A stretch of DNA of 64,000 bases from Patescibacteria group bacterium (GTDB taxonomy: Bacteria; Patescibacteriota; Patescibacteriia; UBA9934), in assembly GCA_038064675.1 (NCBI GenBank), contig JBBTSM010000003.1, forward strand, positions 38,663 to 102,662. Direction: 5' to 3'. Position numbers and translations under genes: made by a program. The notes under the pieces are model-generated. The model saw nothing but the letters and a program-made list of their open reading frames with translations. It made no database searches and was not told where the DNA came from. How positions within the stretch are numbered: the first letter of the stretch is position 1; every line of letters starts with the position of its first letter. This document shows positions 8,028 through 61,459 of this stretch, piece after piece.

Positions 8028-8066
8028 CGAAATCGAAAACGCGGCCCGTTGCGTTGGGCCGCGTTT
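8028..8066 (-). terminator. rho-independent terminator downstream of 8097..8480
   Basis: AAACGCGGCCC gttgcgtt GGGCCGCGTTT hairpin with a T-run on the minus strand (TTTTCGATTT). Confidence 0.55.
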
Positions 8067-15697: not shown

Positions 15698-16456
15698 TCA
15701 GCTCCGGCACTTCTTTGCGCCTCTTTTTATCCACATTATGAAGAAGATGCCGATTCCGAAAAAGACAATGGAAAAGTACTGCCCAGGGGTTAGTCCGAAG
15801 TAACGCACATCAATGACGCGTAAGAAATCGAGACCGAAGCGCGTTGCGCCGTACCAGATCGAAAACACGGCGATATAGATTCCAACAGGACGCTGCTTTC
15901 TCGACAGCCACAGAAACACCATCGCGAGCACACATGCATTCACCGATTCGTATAATCCAAGATCATGCCGCACAACACCGTCGGGATACTGCACGCCGAG
16001 CAAGAAGTGCGTTGCGGTTCCGGGATGGTCGTGAATAAGAAAACACCCAATACGTCCAATCCACATCCCAAACGGCATACCGAACGCAACAATATCGGTG
16101 TACCGAAGCAGATCAACTTTCCGATGACGCAAATACAGAATGCCCGTTATCGATGCAACGACGAAGCCGCCGTAAATCGATAATCCACCTTTCCAGATCT
16201 CGAACACTTCGGTGAAGTGCGCCGCGTAATATCCAGGATCGTAAAACAGTACGTGACCAAGTCTTCCACCAACCATTCCCGTAATCGCCACCCACGTCAG
16301 CATGTCCCACACAATTTGCGGATCATCCCCGCGCTGCTTCGCAAGTCGTGCCGCCATGAAAGCGCCGAGGAGAAAGCCGAAGGCAACGAACAAACCCCAG
16401 ACGTGGAGAGTGAGAGGGCCAAGGGAGAAGATTGTGAGGGAGAAGTATGGGATCAT
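15698..16456 (-). CDS. lgt: prolipoprotein diacylglyceryl transferase
   Basis: 252-aa polytopic membrane protein with Lgt signature regions (GGRLGHVLFY..., IGRIGCFL..H). Confidence 0.9.
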   Translation of the reverse strand: MIPYFSLTIFSLGPLTLHVWGLFVAFGFLLGAFMAARLAKQRGDDPQIVWDMLTWVAITGMVGGRLGHVLFYDPGYYAAHFTEVFEIWKGGLSIYGGFVVASITGILYLRHRKVDLLRYTDIVAFGMPFGMWIGRIGCFLIHDHPGTATHFLLGVQYPDGVVRHDLGLYESVNACVLAMVFLWLSRKQRPVGIYIAVFSIWYGATRFGLDFLRVIDVRYFGLTPGQYFSIVFFGIGIFFIMWIKRGAKKCRS

Positions 16457-16923
16457 ACCAAAGCCCCCTCCGACTCCCCCATAAATGGGGGAGAGATATC
16501 ATCGAGCGTTCGTTCGATCGTTTTGATTACAGATACGGGGCTGTTCATAATTTCTTCGTTTCGGATTCGGAGGATGGCGTAGCCAGCACTCCTTAAATAC
16601 TCCTCACGATCTTCATCGTACTTTTTCGCGGCGTCAGAATCATGGACTGATCCGTCGATTTCAATAACGAGCTTCGCCTCATCACAGTATAAATCAACAA
16701 TGTAGAGCCCAATTCCATGTTGACGACGAAACTTCTTCCCACGAACCCTTCTCATTCGCACTAAATTCCAAAGAATCTTTTCCGCCGGAGTTTCGTTTGC
16801 TCTTAAATCACGCTGTCGTTCAACATACTTCGCGAGACCGCGAATTCGATCTCCAATAACCCGAAGCTTCCGATATGACTTCTCTCCCCCATTTATGGGG
16901 GAGTCGGAGGGGGCTTCGATCAT
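16453..16923 (-). CDS. DUF559 (Vsr-like very-short-patch-repair endonuclease fold) domain protein
   Basis: Core ...ETPAEKILWNLVRMRRVRGKKFRRQHGIGLYIVDLYCDEAKLVIEIDGSVHD...YLRSAGYAILRIRNEEI matches the DUF559/Vsr-like family. The first ~20 and last ~12 codons are encoded by the inverted repeats. Confidence 0.75.
   Translation of the reverse strand: MIEAPSDSPINGGEKSYRKLRVIGDRIRGLAKYVERQRDLRANETPAEKILWNLVRMRRVRGKKFRRQHGIGLYIVDLYCDEAKLVIEIDGSVHDSDAAKKYDEDREEYLRSAGYAILRIRNEEIMNSPVSVIKTIERTLDDISPPFMGESEGALV
16461..16496. repeat. 36-bp inverted repeat, left arm (GC-rich palindromic element family)
   Basis: aagccccctccgactcccccataaatgggggagaga. Its exact reverse complement is at 16881..16916. It contains the internal hairpin CTCCCCCAT-aa-ATGGGGGAG. 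Confidence 0.9.
16881..16916. repeat. 36-bp inverted repeat, right arm
   Basis: Perfect reverse complement of 16461..16496. Confidence 0.9.
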
Positions 16924-17372
16924 AACGCCCCCAGCACCACCAATGCCCGCTTAAACTCGGCGATTGCTTTTTCTGCTTGCGCGATCTTCAACTCCGATCC
17001 TGCTTCGTGAACCAGAGTATTTCTGAGCGACCGTGCCCAGAAGGTTCGCTGGAGGTCGTGATATTTCCTGCTCGCAAACTTTAATCGCTCCCCCGTCGTT
17101 GTTCCTGGAAACGATTTTGCTTTTAATGCAAGGTCGAGCACTGCGTCGGCCTGGATAATCGCCAATCGCAGACTCATCACGTCGCCACGACGAGCGAGAT
17201 CTTCAACCGCCTTCCAGTGCTTCGATACATTGTCTCGTTCACTTCCAAATCTCCATCGCCGCATCGCCCGCCGAAGCCACACCGTCGCCATCAGCAGAAA
17301 TACAAAACCGACGGCGCCGATGACCACGTACGGAAGTACGGCTGATGCCATCGATGCAACGTCGGTTTTCAT
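16920..17372 (-). CDS. hypothetical membrane-anchored protein
   Basis: 150 aa with one N-terminal TM helix (VVIGAVGFVFLLMATVW). 4-nt overlap with the downstream ORF start. Confidence 0.45.
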   Translation of the reverse strand: MKTDVASMASAVLPYVVIGAVGFVFLLMATVWLRRAMRRWRFGSERDNVSKHWKAVEDLARRGDVMSLRLAIIQADAVLDLALKAKSFPGTTTGERLKFASRKYHDLQRTFWARSLRNTLVHEAGSELKIAQAEKAIAEFKRALVVLGAL

Positions 17373-17374
17373 AG

Positions 17375-18802
17375 TTACGATGCGTTATGCAATCCTTCAA
17401 ACGCCGCAGCGACCTGGAGAACTCTATTGTCATCAAAACTCTTTCCAAGCACCTGCAACCCAACCGGCAAACCGTGCGCTGTGCCGCAAGGAACGGAAAT
17501 TCCCGGAATACCAAGAATGTTTGCGGAGACAGTGAATACGTCGGCAAGGTACATGGAGACTGGGTCGTCCATCTTTTCGCCAATTCCCCACGCAACGATC
17601 GGTGACACTGGGCCGACGATGACGTCAACATTCTTCAGTGCAGCATCAAACTCCATCTTCATCGCCGCACGAACCGCAATCGCCTTCTTGTAGAACGCAT
17701 CGTAGTAACCGGCGGACAGAATGAACGTCCCCAACATGATACGACGCTTCGATTCTGCCCCGAATCCTGCGCCGCGAGCGGATCGGTAGCTTTCTTCGAT
17801 TGCGCCTTCCCCACGATTGCCGTAGCGCATACCGTCAAAACGCGCCAAGTTGCTACTCGCCTCTGCTGGCTGAATAATGTAGAATGCCGGTAATGCATAC
17901 GGCGCAAGCGGCAACGACATATTCACGATTTCTGCTCCGCCGCTCTTCAGCGTGTCGATCGCCTCATGAATCCTCGCCGCGACATCTTCATCCATGCCGT
18001 CGATAAAATATTCCTTTGGCACGCCGATACGAACGCCGGCGAGACTTGATGAAACATTTTCCGAAGCCGGGTCATCAAGAACAACCGACGTTGCATCGTG
18101 AGAATCCTTTCCCTCGATCACCGACAACACGATCGCGATGTCCTCAACGGTTGTTGCGATCGGGCCTACCTGATCGAGGCTTGATCCATCCGCAATGATT
18201 CCATATCGCGAAACACGTCCGTAGGTCGGTTTCATTCCAACAACACCACAAAGTGACGACGGCTGGCGAATCGAGCCGCCAGTATCTGAACCAAGCGCGG
18301 CAGGAATCATTCCCGCGGCAACAGCCGCCGCAGATCCGCCCGATGTTCCACCAGGAACCTTCGACGTGTCATGCGGATTCTTCGTCACATGAAACGCCGA
18401 TGATTCGGTGGACGACCCGAAAGCAAACTCATCCATGTTCGTTCTGCCAATAATGATGGCGCCAGCTTCCTGCAGACGAGTGACGACGGTTGCGGTATAC
18501 GTCGCACGATAATCGGCGAGCATCTTTGAACCGGCGCTTGCGATGTGACCCATGACAAGCATGTTGTCTTTGAGCGCGATCGGAACTCCAGCCAATGGAA
18601 GGTCAGCCTCACCAACTGCGATACGAGCATCAACCTCCCTCGCTGCCTTCCGTGCGTCGTCGGCAAATACTTCGAGGAACGCGCCAATCTCACCATCCTT
18701 TTCTTCAATTCGACGAATCGCCTCATCGACAATCGATTCAGCTGTCGCCGATCCTGCATTCACCGAATCTCGAATTGATTTTACGGTCCAGTTGGTGGTC
18801 AT
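17375..18802 (-). CDS. gatA: Asp-tRNA(Asn)/Glu-tRNA(Gln) amidotransferase subunit A
   Basis: Amidase signature [12 protein letters not shown] and catalytic Ser/Lys regions. 475 aa. Confidence 0.95.
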
Positions 18803-19093: not shown

Positions 19094-21370
<2,277 letters not shown>

Positions 21371-30041: not shown

Positions 30042-30616
30042 TGGGCCACCCGCGCACCGCCGAACAGACCTCCTGGCCCCCTGGCCGGCACCAAGTCCGT
30101 GTTCGACCAAGAAAAGAAAAACCGAAGCGGCGGCGTACGACACCGCCGCTTCCCCCACCGACGACCCTCTTCCTCGTTCCAGACTTGCCGCAGGCGCCAG
30201 CTGTCAACGAGGGTCCGTGGGGAGTGGAATGGACCGAAGTCCAACGGTCCATCGCGGAACGAGCGGTAGAGACCGTGGGAGATGCGGCCAACAAAGCCGC
30301 GACAACCGTCTTCCTGCTGATCCTGGAGTTTCAGCGGACAGACGATTCAGCGACAGAGCACGGCAAGAAGCTCCTCGGCGCACTCCATCGGCTGCTCGAC
30401 TCTTACATCACCCGGTGCAGCGCACTGGATGTGATGAAAAGAATCCACGAAATCGGAGATCGACTCCGACTAGATGGATATTCCGAAATCCTGGACTGGA
30501 GCGCCACCGCAAGATTCGTGGTTCAGAAGGTGTACGCACAGGGCTACGTCGCCGCGCTCGGACAGGCCGAAGCAGCAGTCCCAAGAGCGTTCACTTCCCG
30601 CTCACACCGCCCGTGA
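30042..30616 (+). CDS. hypothetical protein (GC-rich island)
   Basis: ATG preceded by SD CAGGAGG. Pro/Arg-rich N-terminus. The 29678 upstream extension is rejected because it overlaps lepA. Confidence 0.4.
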
Positions 30617-59389: not shown

Positions 59390-61459
59390 TTACTTTCCGC
59401 GAGATCGCTTCCCTTTCTTTCCCTTCTTCATTCCCAACAACTCTTTACTCAACAACGCGATTTCATCTCGCAGAATCGCCGCGGTCTCGAAGAGCAAGTT
59501 TGCCGATGCTTTGTCCATTTCAATTTCCTTCTCACGAATCGCCTCCTCAATCTCCATCGGCGTTGCGCCAATTTCGATGTCGAGAATCTTTGATGTGTCG
59601 GCCTCAAAATTCCGATCGAGTTCTGCGCGAATGTCTTTAATCGTCTTGATAATCGTTTGCGGCGTGATGCCGTGCTTGATGTTATGTGCGATCTGGATAG
59701 TACGACGACGTTCAGTTTCCTTCAGCGCCCTGTCGAGCGATCCTGTCATTTTATCGGCGTACAGAACAACCAAACCGTTCACGTTACGCGCCGCACGGCC
59801 GATAGTCTGAATCAACGACGTTTCCGATCGCAAGAATCCTTCCTTATCCGCATCGAGAACACCGATGAGCGAAACTTCTGGGAGATCGAGACCTTCGCGA
59901 AGCAAGTTCACTCCAACCACAACATCGTATGTTCCCCGTCGGAGCTCGGATAAGATAGTAATTCGATCCAAGGTTTCGACATCCGAGTGCAAATACGCAA
60001 CCTTCATTCCGCCTTCTTTGAGGTACGTCGTCAAATCCTCCGCCATCTTCTTCGTCAGCGTCGTCACCAACGCTCGCTCACCTTTTGTAACACGGTCCTT
60101 AATGCGCTCGACAATATCGGCGACTTGGCCCGGGAAAGGACCCCCTCCGACTCCCCCTTCGTAAGGGGGAGCGTTGTCGGTCTGCGTTACTGGCAGCACC
60201 AATGTTTCTGGATCGACCAATCCCGTTGGACGAATAATCTGTTCAACGATCTTTTCCGATGTTTCCCTCTCAACCACTCCAGGCGTTGCTGAAACGTAGA
60301 CAGTCTGACCGATCGTCTTATCGAACTCTTGGTATGTTAACGGTCGATTATCCTTTGCCGATGGAAGACGGAATCCGAAATCGACCAACGTCTGTTTTCG
60401 GGCCTGATCACCGGCGAACATACCACCGATCTGTGGGAGCGTGACGTGTGATTCGTCGATAATCGTCAAGAAATCCTTCGGGAAATACGACAGCAACGTG
60501 TGTGCCGGTTCACCAACGCGACGGCCGTCGAAGTGACGGGAATAGTTTTCAATTCCGCTACAGTATCCAACATTCCGAATCATCTCGATGTCGTATCTCG
60601 TACGTCGAGTTAAGCGTTCGGACTCTAAAAGCTTTCCCTCGATTTCGAATTCCTTGAGTCTATCAGCGAGCTCGGCTTCAATATCACGGATCGCGCGTTC
60701 CCGTTCGGCGGAATCGGACATGAAATGTTTCGCCGGAAAGAACCACGCATCCTCATTTTGTGTAAGGATTTTTCGCGTCACTTTGTTCAGCGCAAAAATT
60801 TCACGCACCGCATTGCCCTCAATAACAATGCGATACACCGTTTCATCGCTCGGCGGCATCACCTCGATGACATCACCGTTCGCGCGGAAGTGACCACGGG
60901 TTAAATCAGCATTCGTTCGCTCGTACTGCATCGCCACGAGCTGACGGAGAAAATCTGCACGATCGATCCGATCGTTCACTCGGAGATGAAGAACCTCGCG
61001 CTTGTACGCTTCTGGCGAACCCAAGCCGTAAATACAACTCACCGATGCAACCACAATGACATCGCGCCTCGATAACAACGACTGCGTTGCAGCGTGGCGC
61101 AATCGATCGATCTCCTCGTTAATCTGCGCGTCCTTTTCGATGTACGTATCTGTTCTCGGCATGTACGCCTCTGGCTGGTAGTAGTCGTAATAGGAAACGA
61201 AGTACGACACCGCATTGTCTGGAAAAAAATCGCGGAATTCGGAACACAACTGCGCGGCAAGGGTTTTGTTGTGCGCGATGACGAGCGTCGGTTTCTGCAC
61301 ATTCTGAATAACATTCGCCATCGTAAAAGTTTTTCCCGAACCCGTAACACCAAGAAGCGTCTGCCGATGCAGACCGTCCTTGATCCCATCGGTGAGATCC
61401 GCAATTGCCTTCGGCTGATCGCCCGCTGGAGAATATTTTGAGACGAGATTGAATGACAT
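59390..61459 (-). CDS. uvrB: excinuclease ABC subunit B
   Basis: Helicase motifs (GVTGSGKT, DESH), UvrB interaction domain, C-terminal basic tail. Contains an in-frame palindromic-element insertion. Confidence 0.95.
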   Translation of the reverse strand: MSFNLVSKYSPAGDQPKAIADLTDGIKDGLHRQTLLGVTGSGKTFTMANVIQNVQKPTLVIAHNKTLAAQLCSEFRDFFPDNAVSYFVSYYDYYQPEAYMPRTDTYIEKDAQINEEIDRLRHAATQSLLSRRDVIVVASVSCIYGLGSPEAYKREVLHLRVNDRIDRADFLRQLVAMQYERTNADLTRGHFRANGDVIEVMPPSDETVYRIVIEGNAVREIFALNKVTRKILTQNEDAWFFPAKHFMSDSAERERAIRDIEAELADRLKEFEIEGKLLESERLTRRTRYDIEMIRNVGYCSGIENYSRHFDGRRVGEPAHTLLSYFPKDFLTIIDESHVTLPQIGGMFAGDQARKQTLVDFGFRLPSAKDNRPLTYQEFDKTIGQTVYVSATPGVVERETSEKIVEQIIRPTGLVDPETLVLPVTQTDNAPPYEGGVGGGPFPGQVADIVERIKDRVTKGERALVTTLTKKMAEDLTTYLKEGGMKVAYLHSDVETLDRITILSELRRGTYDVVVGVNLLREGLDLPEVSLIGVLDADKEGFLRSETSLIQTIGRAARNVNGLVVLYADKMTGSLDRALKETERRRTIQIAHNIKHGITPQTIIKTIKDIRAELDRNFEADTSKILDIEIGATPMEIEEAIREKEIEMDKASANLLFETAAILRDEIALLSKELLGMKKGKKGKRSRGK
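60141..60171. repeat. GC-rich palindromic element inserted in-frame in uvrB (encodes NAPPYEGGVGGGP)
   Basis: ccccctccgactccccc + CTCCCCCTT-cgt-AAGGGGGAG. The 17-mer ccccctccgactccccc is identical to the DUF559 inverted-repeat arm at 16465-16481. Confidence 0.75.

Follow-up and report, generated by a model that had tools for sequence, protein, structure and literature searches.

In the window analysed here (the whole 64-kb stretch of DNA from a Patescibacteria group bacterium), a gene for a DUF559-family, Vsr-like endonuclease sits between a 150-amino-acid open reading frame (orf150) and lgt, and its two ends are built from inverted repeats. The locus raises the question of whether such a gene is a resident of the junction or an arrival, and of what its repeats have to do with the nuclease that they frame. 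The reading we favour, and hold to be probable, is that window positions 16458-16917 are a compact mobile insertion, and that the DUF559 nuclease would be what moves both the element and its derivatives.

An insertion at the orf150/lgt junction

The features of the locus are as follows, in window coordinates.

16458 to 16917, minus strand: inserted element proper, 460 bp (arm, body of the DUF559 ORF, arm), missing at the empty sites of relatives
16918 to 16924, no strand: direct repeat GATCATA, upstream copy, read from the sequence
16451 to 16457, no strand: direct repeat GATCATA, downstream copy, read from the sequence
16881 to 16916, minus strand: 5' terminal inverted repeat (gene orientation), from repeat search, hairpin folding and conservation among eight copies
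16461 to 16496, plus strand: 3' terminal inverted repeat, exact reverse complement of the 5' arm, on the same bases
16453 to 16923, minus strand: ORF of 156 aa for a DUF559 / Vsr-like PD-(D/E)XK endonuclease, from Pfam, PDB and fold matches

The perfect 36-bp inverted repeats that the preliminary description placed around the gene are present: the 36-mer AAGCCCCCTCCGACTCCCCCATAAATGGGGGAGAGA occupies 16461-16496 on the plus strand and is matched by a perfect reverse complement at 16881-16916. Even with up to 3 mismatches allowed, the window has only these 2 matches (0 matches in 100 shuffles), and pairing at 95% complementarity extends over 42 nt (16461-16502 with 16875-16916). The gatcat reported outside both arms is likewise there, as part of what is actually a 7-bp direct repeat, GATCATA, or TATGATC in gene orientation. 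In its upstream copy the 150-aa ORF ends and the DUF559 gene starts (ATG), and in its downstream copy the DUF559 TGA meets the lgt ATG, in each case as an ATGA overlap. The arms had been placed 2 nt from the lgt start and from the upstream stop, whereas the true distances are 4 nt (start codon at 16454-16456) and 3 nt (stop codon at 16920-16922). On the minus strand, the junctions read:

GCGTT ATGATC / GAAGCCCCC...GGGGGCTTTGG T / ATGATC CCATAC

The element itself brings neither a start nor a stop codon. Its ORF is open through both arms, with start and stop codons inside the duplicated junction sequence; since TATGATC stands on both sides, the duplicated ATG and TGA act as the element's start and stop, and all three genes thus remain translationally coupled. 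Each arm supplies about 12 codons, i.e., aa 3-15 from the 5' arm (APSDSPINGGE) and aa 143-155 from the 3' arm (SPPFMGESEGA), such that the earlier estimate was right for the C-terminus (~12) and too high for the N-terminus (~20).

Relatives with the same gene order, among which the preliminary description had proposed to look for empty sites, provide them. In three (L205, L206 and L207), the element is missing, and the 150-aa ORF and lgt share an ATGA that holds the stop of the one and the start of the other (...GGGGGCGYT ATGA TYCC...; empty-site sequence GGGGGCGYTATGATYCC), with the sequence of the 7-bp direct repeat in single copy; the 150-aa ORF of the window is 84-91% and 69% identical to those of the empty-site relatives. 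The same junction is filled in L003, L006 and L215, whereas closer relatives are empty. These relatives are filled or empty, and do not keep the repeat as ordinary DNA with no signs of mobility. A site with the doublet alone was never seen at the lgt junction, the arms and gene being gained or lost there as one unit. The element is therefore mobile, by its insertion/empty-site polymorphism and by the duplication that accompanies it. Only one full-length copy exists in the 64-kb window; homologues of 47-55% identity occupy Wzy_C/GT4 and trx/trxB junctions, with those at Wzy_C/GT4 also flanked by TATGA (5 bp), and the three occupied junctions have little in common beyond (T)ATGA.

This is the setting in which to judge two static accounts of the locus. 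Were this a resident Vsr-type repair gene whose palindromes stabilise mRNA or act as REP-like terminators, its Vsr-like fold and the stable arm hairpins (-8.9 and -8.8 kcal/mol; z-scores -3.6 and -3.3) would be expected, but the gene is cleanly missing in close relatives, its arms lie inside the ORF with no run of T after them, it has no cytosine methylase as a neighbouring partner, and ligA and uvrB are interrupted by the same motif (see below). A scan of 16300-17100 against Rfam returned no known RNA families. We give this account practically no credence, and the contrary view of the preliminary description, that of a mobile element, is borne out by the empty sites, the 7-bp duplication, and the homologues at other gene junctions.

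Very improbable as well is a programmed-inversion switch, in which the 36-bp inverted repeats would flip the cassette to turn the nuclease on and off. Perfect inverted repeats could support flipping, and Milman et al. (2023) found 'DUF559 domain-containing protein' enriched, with an odds ratio of 14, among predicted programmed-inversion targets; this enrichment is attributable to the flanking repeats described here. All close copies (8/8), though, are co-oriented with both neighbouring genes, no invertase was found within ~3 kb, no recombinase Pfam family shows up in the flanks, and flipping would leave both the empty sites and the duplication unexplained.

Arms, solo copies, and gene-less doublets

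Across eight copies, few parts of the element are as well conserved as the arms, whose mean pairwise identity is 0.75-0.91 vs 0.45-0.6 for most of the body; compensatory changes preserve the hairpins, and the arm-encoded N- and C-termini are present in all close homologues. The 5' arm carries CCCCCTC-CGA-CTCCCCC-ATAAAT-GGGGGAG at 16884-16913, and the 3' arm its counterpart at 16464-16493. Since the hairpin stem (CTCCCCC) mirrors the first box (box1, CCCCCTC), the arm would qualify as an intrastrand-triplex (BoxC/PIT) motif. Under the criterion applied, i.e., a third-strand block mirroring the pyrimidine stem of the hairpin (parallel to the purine stem) and then the hairpin itself, the window contains exactly four motifs, namely the two arms and two solo copies:

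20582 to 20614, plus strand: predicted solo triplex motif of type B, CTCCCCC-CGA-CCCCCTC-loop-GAGGGGG, in-frame in ligA
60141 to 60171, plus strand: predicted solo triplex motif of type A, in-frame in uvrB, encoding NAPPYEGGVGGG

All four show 0 mismatches to the mirror rule (7/7 mirror positions) and have the spacer CGA. Among 233 hairpins from 80 DUF559 loci, the mirror relation fits 82 and a direct copy 27. Judged by sequence, arms and solo copies alike are thus predicted to be BoxC / PIT / 'TM' intrastrand-triplex motifs. A 17-mer of the arms, CCCCCTCCGACTCCCCC, had been said to recur inside uvrB, and it was found there at 60141-60157, sharing the CGA spacer; the ligA copy (20582-20614) and the mirror relation between box1 and stem had both been overlooked.

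The solo copies are polymorphic between relatives. That in ligA adds 9 aa when compared with E. coli LigA, and the 30-nt insertion is missing from ligA of L216 and L217, for each of which a motif search over 20 kb found no motif. The uvrB copy adds 18 aa in comparison with solved UvrB structures. Another lies inside the GT4 gene of L004, with a spacer that differs from the arms of that same genome, and is missing in L209. Doublets laid out like the arms of the element and having no gene between them account for 40 of the 129 motif instances among the matches listed, and are spread over many phyla. A+B arms are found in L004, L209 and L212 and in gene-less doublets (Andersenbacteria, Gallionella), and the window pair is A+A.

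The association of DUF559 with such repeats holds family-wide. Across 80 metagenomic loci of unrelated DUF559 genes, triplex motif density is 1.98 per kb at gene ends vs 0.10 elsewhere (~20x), and inverted repeats with a score of at least 13 flank 36 of 57 DUF559 genes, whereas 114 shifted controls gave none and 72 neighbouring genes gave 2. The linkage of gene and arms recurs in different phyla with very different arm sequences. The suggestion that endonuclease and palindromes form one system therefore stands as an association, given this enrichment together with the doublets and the polymorphic solo copies, whereas movement catalysed by DUF559 is what we infer from it. Our literature search found no paper linking DUF559 to BoxC/PIT/TM repeats.

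The association could also be read in reverse: the repeats would be primary, moved by host replication or repair or by some other enzyme, with DUF559 as a passenger or as a domesticated 'guardian' nuclease acting on such structures, its gene lying between two repeats by chance. The repeats are indeed far commoner than DUF559 genes, with such a gene adjoining the motif in 1 of the 119 motif-bearing genome loci among the matches listed (at most 8 kb each), and Holder et al. (NAR 2015, PMC4666352) tie the repeats to local rearrangement without a mobility gene. Some ~38% of complete E. coli genomes are without the ycjD region yet have extra short matches elsewhere, which would probably be motif copies; for ycjD itself, a clean empty site was sought in E. 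coli and not found, strains without the gene carrying the eefRABCD operon there. In addition, no convincing target duplication was seen at gene-less doublets or near the more distant DUF559 loci. We nonetheless consider the reversed order improbable, as the arms and gene come and go together at the lgt junction, their linkage persists in several phyla despite very different arms, and the ORF is built for reading through the arms.

The nuclease and a proposed route of movement

The only ORF of the element encodes a protein matching DUF559 (PF04480; E = 3e-33 over aa 35-140; 114 bits vs a cutoff of 20.6), its further Pfam matches being limited to MTES_1575 and DUF2726. In the PDB it matches 3HRL (E = 1e-30; Foldseek TM-score 0.89) and the homing endonuclease I-Bth0305I (3R3P; E = 1e-4), to which its fold is similar; the second fold match has a TM-score of 0.75. 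By sequence comparison, the family-invariant residues D77, E88, D90, H94 and D103 are retained. An AF2 model is confident for the core (aa 30-143) and gives a pLDDT below 50 for the arm-encoded tails, such that the Pro/Gly-rich peptides contributed by the arms are predicted to be disordered. DUF559 is, to our knowledge, a very large family to which no function has been assigned.

A fold of this kind calls to mind a free-standing homing endonuclease gene, one whose product would cut the empty orf150/lgt allele in other cells of the population and that would be copied in by recombinational repair (intron-less homing), with the arms incidental or regulatory. Besides the fold and sequence match to I-Bth0305I, this account has in its favour the patchy filling of the junction among relatives and a discordance between DUF559 similarities and host grouping. 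Copies at the lgt junction are 55-62% identical, compared to up to 88% for the flanking Lgt, and the flanks are mosaic, the window gatA and orf150 being nearest to those of L206 and the lgt to that of L205. Each locus also has its own deep DUF559 lineage, as homing would have it, a pattern also compatible with an old, resident gene that is now and then lost precisely. But homing predicts neither terminal inverted repeats nor a target duplication, leaves unexplained both the high conservation of the arms and the gene-less doublets and solo arms across phyla, and needs a long specific site, whereas the occupied junctions share little apart from (T)ATGA. It is in our estimation unlikely.

To return to the mobile insertion that we favour, the features of a transposon with terminal inverted repeats are present (36-bp repeats, 7-bp duplication, empty sites), and no DDE, HUH, serine, tyrosine or DEDD transposase is encoded. 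A nuclease gene framed by inverted triplex repeats and inserted at a stop/start overlap suggests that the DUF559 family is the missing partner of the BoxC/triplex repeats. In the model that we propose, the nuclease would recognise the structured (hairpin or triplex) ends of the element, and would cut both the element-flank boundaries and a short target around TATGA, here the ATGA in which the end of the 150-aa ORF and the start of lgt overlap by 4 nt. A staggered cut of the target followed by host fill-in repair would give rise to the duplication of 7 bp (TATGATC), and the host would finish the insertion by ligation or repair. The ATGA junction could be brought back by precise loss. Solo arms and inverted-arm doublets would be gene-less derivatives of the element, i.e., the dispersed BoxC/TM repeats themselves. 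We know of no route by which a hydrolytic PD-(D/E)XK nuclease could carry out strand transfer on its own, and of no precedent for a nuclease-only transposon. The single full-length copy in the window, the scarcity of motif loci with an adjoining DUF559 gene, and the mismatched spacer of the L004 solo copy weigh against the model too. DUF559 is scarce in phages and plasmids (3 phage and 29 plasmid records), which makes the classical vectors a less than obvious route.

A broader proposal can be advanced tentatively, as a possibility that falls short of our main reading: DUF559 proteins, including E. coli YcjD, may be the mobilising nucleases of BoxC/PIT/TM repeats, and may define a new class of mobile element. 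Such a class would use structured hairpin or triplex ends instead of a conventional transposase, and would be translated straight through, thus fitting ATGA junctions or in-frame positions within restriction-modification genes, ligA, and uvrB.

Relation to known systems

Knowledge of BoxC/PIT/triplex repeats in E. coli goes back to the early 1990s; these repeats are found in hundreds of genomes and coincide with rearrangement hotspots (PMC4666352, with earlier BoxC work and the PIT work of Hoyne and Maher cited therein). No mobility gene, whether transposase, integrase or other, was found near them, and E. coli copies were reported to be always intergenic (PMC4666352). The motifs described here resemble these repeats in having a third-strand box that mirrors the hairpin stem, short loops, a G/C-rich composition, types A and B, inverted A+B doublets, a distribution over many phyla, and a tie to local genome variability. 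They differ in that two copies here form the terminal inverted repeats of a nuclease gene for which there are both an empty site and a duplicated target, and in that solo copies lie in-frame within essential genes.

The preliminary description had likened the system to RAYT and its REPs. RAYT is an HUH/Y1 enzyme, which covalently cuts and rejoins single-stranded DNA. As in RAYT/REP-REPIN systems, one gene lies between inverted structured repeats that are also dispersed as singlets and inverted doublets, with the doublet the likely mobile, non-autonomous unit. REPs are extragenic, however, while the repeats of the element also lie in-frame within genes, and the element protein is a hydrolytic PD-(D/E)XK nuclease. 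Since it is not of the HUH/Y1 (IS200/IS605-type) kind, the comparison is one of analogy and not of family membership.

Other systems share parts of the picture. I-Bth0305I, which resides within a group I intron, has the same Vsr-like (EDxHD) catalytic domain, and free-standing homing genes have in common with the element a small nuclease gene found in some related genomes and missing from others at exactly one position between conserved genes, but they are without terminal inverted repeats, target duplication, or gene-less derivatives. Insertion sequences with terminal inverted repeats and their MITEs display inverted ends, short target duplications, empty sites, and short gene-less derivatives, whereas the element has no transposase of a known class, measures only 460 bp, and relies on the target for the start and stop codons of an ORF open through both ends. 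Rickettsia palindromic elements, for which we know of no recognised protein partner, are likewise short palindromic repeats lying in-frame in coding genes as a tolerated peptide loop, but belong to an unrelated sequence family.

Linking DUF559 with the BoxC/PIT/triplex repeats would (i) give each a testable role, (ii) predict a nuclease that recognises non-B DNA ends, (iii) explain why DUF559 genes score as 'programmed-inversion targets', and (iv) offer selfish DNA a means of lasting in very compact genomes, at a stop/start overlap or in-frame, with operons and essential genes left unbroken. (v) The idea is also testable in the model organism E. coli, the DUF559 homologue of which, YcjD, is encoded by a gene with BoxC copies at its 3' end.

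Insertion at the orf150-lgt junction

The DUF559 nuclease gene lies between two arms, the 36-mer AAGCCCCCTCCGACTCCCCCATAAATGGGGGAGAGA (16461-16496) and a perfect reverse-complement copy of it (16881-16916), as the preliminary description had reported; the inverted repeat is extendable to 42 nt at 95% complementarity, and no third match to the 36-mer occurs in the 64-kb window at ≤3 mismatches, nor any in 100 shuffles. That description was otherwise correct, save that its distances from the arms to the neighbouring genes were off by 1-2 nt and that the repeat supplies about 12 codons rather than about 20.

Features of the orf150-lgt region
15698-16456, lgt, neighbour of the DUF559 ORF
16451-16457 and 16918-16924, plus strand, direct repeat GATCATA (TATGATC in gene orientation)
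16453-16923, minus strand, DUF559 ORF between the arms, 156 aa (Pfam E = 3e-33)
16458-16917, element proper (arm, gene, arm), 460 bp
16920-17372, orf150, 150-aa ORF neighbouring the DUF559 ORF, no Pfam family

In gene orientation the junction reads GCGTT ATGATC / GAAGCCCCC...GGGGGCTTTGG T / ATGATC CCATAC; the start and stop of the ORF are the ATG and TGA of the duplicated junction, and the 460 bp of the element contain neither. Syntenic loci reached via homologues of orf150 (L205, L206, L207/L208) have the gene order ligA-gatC-gatA-orf150-lgt-dsbA-DEAD, and the DUF559 gene is absent from all three. At these empty sites orf150 and lgt overlap by stop and start codon (...GGGGGCGCT ATGA TCCC...), and comparison of their junctions with that of the window gives a single TATGATC (7 bp) versus two around the element. 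The segment is an insertion, having inverted ends plus a target duplication; arm, gene and arm have been gained or lost as one whole unit, bearing out the earlier proposal of a mobile element.

Flanking-protein comparison separates two host groups (64-82% identity between them): group A is filled in the window and empty in L205 and L206 (73-94% identity within the group), and group B is filled in L003 and L215 and empty in L207 (71-89%). L006 is likewise filled but was left out of the flank comparison, its contig being too short. Pairwise identity among the DUF559 copies at this junction is only 55-62%, except for L003 vs L006 (78%); L003 and L215, with Lgt proteins 88% identical, carry copies 55% identical, and the copy of L215 is nearer to that of the window (62%) than to that of L003. 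Set against L205 and L206, the flanks are mosaic over window positions 15698-18802, gatA and orf150 being nearest L206 (94% and 91%) and lgt nearest L205 (85%, vs 76% for L206), a pattern suggestive of recombination breakpoints close to where the element inserted. The junction pattern fits either repeated invasion of one junction or an old insertion followed by precise losses and local recombination.

Homologues of 47-55% identity (P0005, P0008, P0010) occupy the junction of Wzy_C with a GT4 glycosyltransferase, once more an ATGA overlap; those in L004 and L212 have TATGA on their flanks. P0012 (about 51%) lies between thioredoxin and thioredoxin reductase. Programmed inversion of a cassette may be considered here, as DUF559 is over-represented in a set of predicted inversion targets (PMC9881135), an enrichment that we attribute to the flanking repeats; however, orientation is that of both neighbours in 8/8 copies, with neither the opposite orientation nor a recombinase seen among these copies and their flanks.

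Complete DUF559 units with arms were also observed in-frame within restriction-modification genes, namely a type IIG Eco57I/MmeI-like methylase-nuclease (L026:2852-3402), an HsdM N6 methylase (L016:913-1362), and an HsdS specificity subunit (L011:2999-3475), with the host reading frame open on either side of the insert. On a Synechocystis sp. B12 plasmid (L221:1440-2080), a DUF559 gene with triplex-motif-like arms sits immediately upstream of a BREX PglX methyltransferase gene, a further case of such elements adjoining defence or methylase genes. The DUF559 gene of Picosynechococcus PCC 7002 plasmid pAQ6 (L220:1400-2060) has shorter-stem variant clusters on either side (e.g., CCCCCAGAATGGGGGTCAGGGGGC), in direct and not inverted orientation.

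The arms as triplex motifs, and solo copies within genes

The arm-encoded termini are kept in all close homologues (N-terminus APS[DI]SPINGG; C-terminus SPPFMGE.EGA or SPSIYGGARGG), and the arms rank with the best-conserved DNA of the 8 copies (mean pairwise identity 0.75-0.91, with most of the body at 0.45-0.6 and the catalytic core at 0.73-0.81); they accompany the gene and are under selection. In L004 the arms are unlike each other (CTCCCCCAT/ATGGGGGAG vs CCCCTCCAT/ATGGAGGGG), each folding its own hairpin via compensatory changes. The outer box CCCCCTC of each arm is the mirror image of the hairpin 5' stem CTCCCCC and would thus be parallel to, and Hoogsteen-compatible with, the purine stem GGGGGAG. 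Judged by sequence, the arms are built like the BoxC / "potential intrastrand triplex" (PIT) / TM motif, for which Holder et al. described 23 copies in E. coli K-12, occurrence in >260 genomes, types A and B, inverted doublets that are always A + B, and association with local rearrangement (PMC4666352). Those authors state explicitly that they found no mobility function nearby, be it a transposase, an integrase or another, whereas the window arms frame a DUF559 gene.

A simple detector of this design, run over the 64-kb window, returned exactly four motifs, 4/4 with a perfect mirror and a CGA spacer: the two arms and two solo (single) copies.

Solo motifs in the window
20582-20614, within ligA, type B
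60141-60171, within uvrB, type A

The uvrB copy, where a 17-mer of the arm does recur at 60141 as previously noted, adds 18 aa compared with solved UvrB structures. The ligA copy adds 9 aa compared with E. coli LigA; at the DNA level it is a 30-nt insertion missing from L216 (GatA 94% identical to that of the window) and L217, and no motif of this kind occurs in 20 kb of each. L004 has a further, third copy, which lies in-frame within the GT4 gene adjoining its DUF559 and is missing from the L209 homologue. Two more G+C-rich perfect hairpins in the window (8037-8066 and 30124-30152; stems of 10-11 bp) do not match the triplex-motif design.

The nuclease and its possible role

Profile searches of the PDB matched the DUF559 protein to 3HRL (E = 1e-30) and to the catalytic domain of homing endonuclease I-Bth0305I (3R3P; E = 1e-4). 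In the AlphaFold model, aa 30-143 are predicted with confidence (TM-score 0.89 to 3HRL, about 0.75 to 3R3P), with the tails encoded by the arms (aa 1-29 and 146-156) at pLDDT <50, and the acidic and His residues invariant in the family are retained. Apicomplexan and ciliate mitochondrial ribosome subunits (9i05, 9g6k, 6z1p) were also among the best fold matches.

We infer that DUF559 would recognise and cut the structured ends, with insertion completed by host repair and ligation; the main objection is that no strand-transfer chemistry is known for a hydrolytic nuclease alone. Intron-less homing of the nuclease gene may instead be at work, with which both the fold and the patchy same-site pattern agree, but this would leave the inverted repeats, the duplication, and the gene-less copies unexplained. 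DUF559 may also be a passenger or guardian.

Association of DUF559 with triplex motifs

Across 80 metagenomic DUF559 loci (38-59% identity, many environments), flanking inverted repeats with a score ≥13 were found at 36/57 DUF559 genes, 0/114 shifted positions, and 2/72 neighbouring genes (score ≥18: 25/57, 0/114, and 0/72, respectively). Triplex-motif density was 1.98 per kb at DUF559 gene ends versus 0.10 per kb in the remainder of these loci, the latter being mostly coding, so that the enrichment is lower when intergenic DNA is the reference, a point that the gene-boundary control covers. The upstream 8-mer matched the mirror of the stem at ≤1 mismatch in 82/233 hairpins and a direct copy of it in 27/233. 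The motif was present on at least one side in 42 of the 56 loci with both flanks available and on both sides in 21, its orientation biased inward. Across phyla, the DUF559 unit is linked with a repeat family having gene-less derivatives, upholding the association of nuclease and dispersed palindromes proposed from the window. Repeat and protein family are each already known; no paper tying DUF559 to triplex repeats was found in the literature searched, a body with most subscription journals outside its coverage.

A wider scan of one genome per species with the pattern CCCCCTCCNNCTCCCCC-N4-9-GGGGGAG matched at least 119 loci, those listed including Gallionellaceae, Bacteroidales, Patescibacteria, Planctomycetota, Chloroflexota, and others. 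Among the 119 matches listed, DUF559 adjoined the motif in only one locus (L180); 40/129 motif instances were inverted doublets with a short spacer, the layout of the element minus its gene, and 45% lay in open frames ≥250 aa (random positions, 72%). In four Gallionellaceae loci (L128, L122, L097, L134), triplex doublets are nested in a longer palindromic unit, CCCAGATAATCCATTAGCC...GCCTAATGGACAATCTGGG, possibly a second repeat family of larger size.

In E. coli K-12, a BoxC-like motif forms the end of the DUF559 gene ycjD; next come a remnant duplicate of the ycjD 3' end and, beyond it, a canonical motif, CCCCTCGCCCCTCTGGGGAGAGGGTTAGGGTGAGGGG (L218:2200-2430; NC_000913.3, about 1351200-1351430). 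Replacement of the eefRABCD efflux operon by ycjD between sapF and fabI has been described for phylogroups A, B1, and C, and independently for ST69 and ST182 (PMC12817139, 2026). The full K-12 ycjD region is present in 3346/5426 complete genomes, with the eefRABCD operon at that site in the rest.
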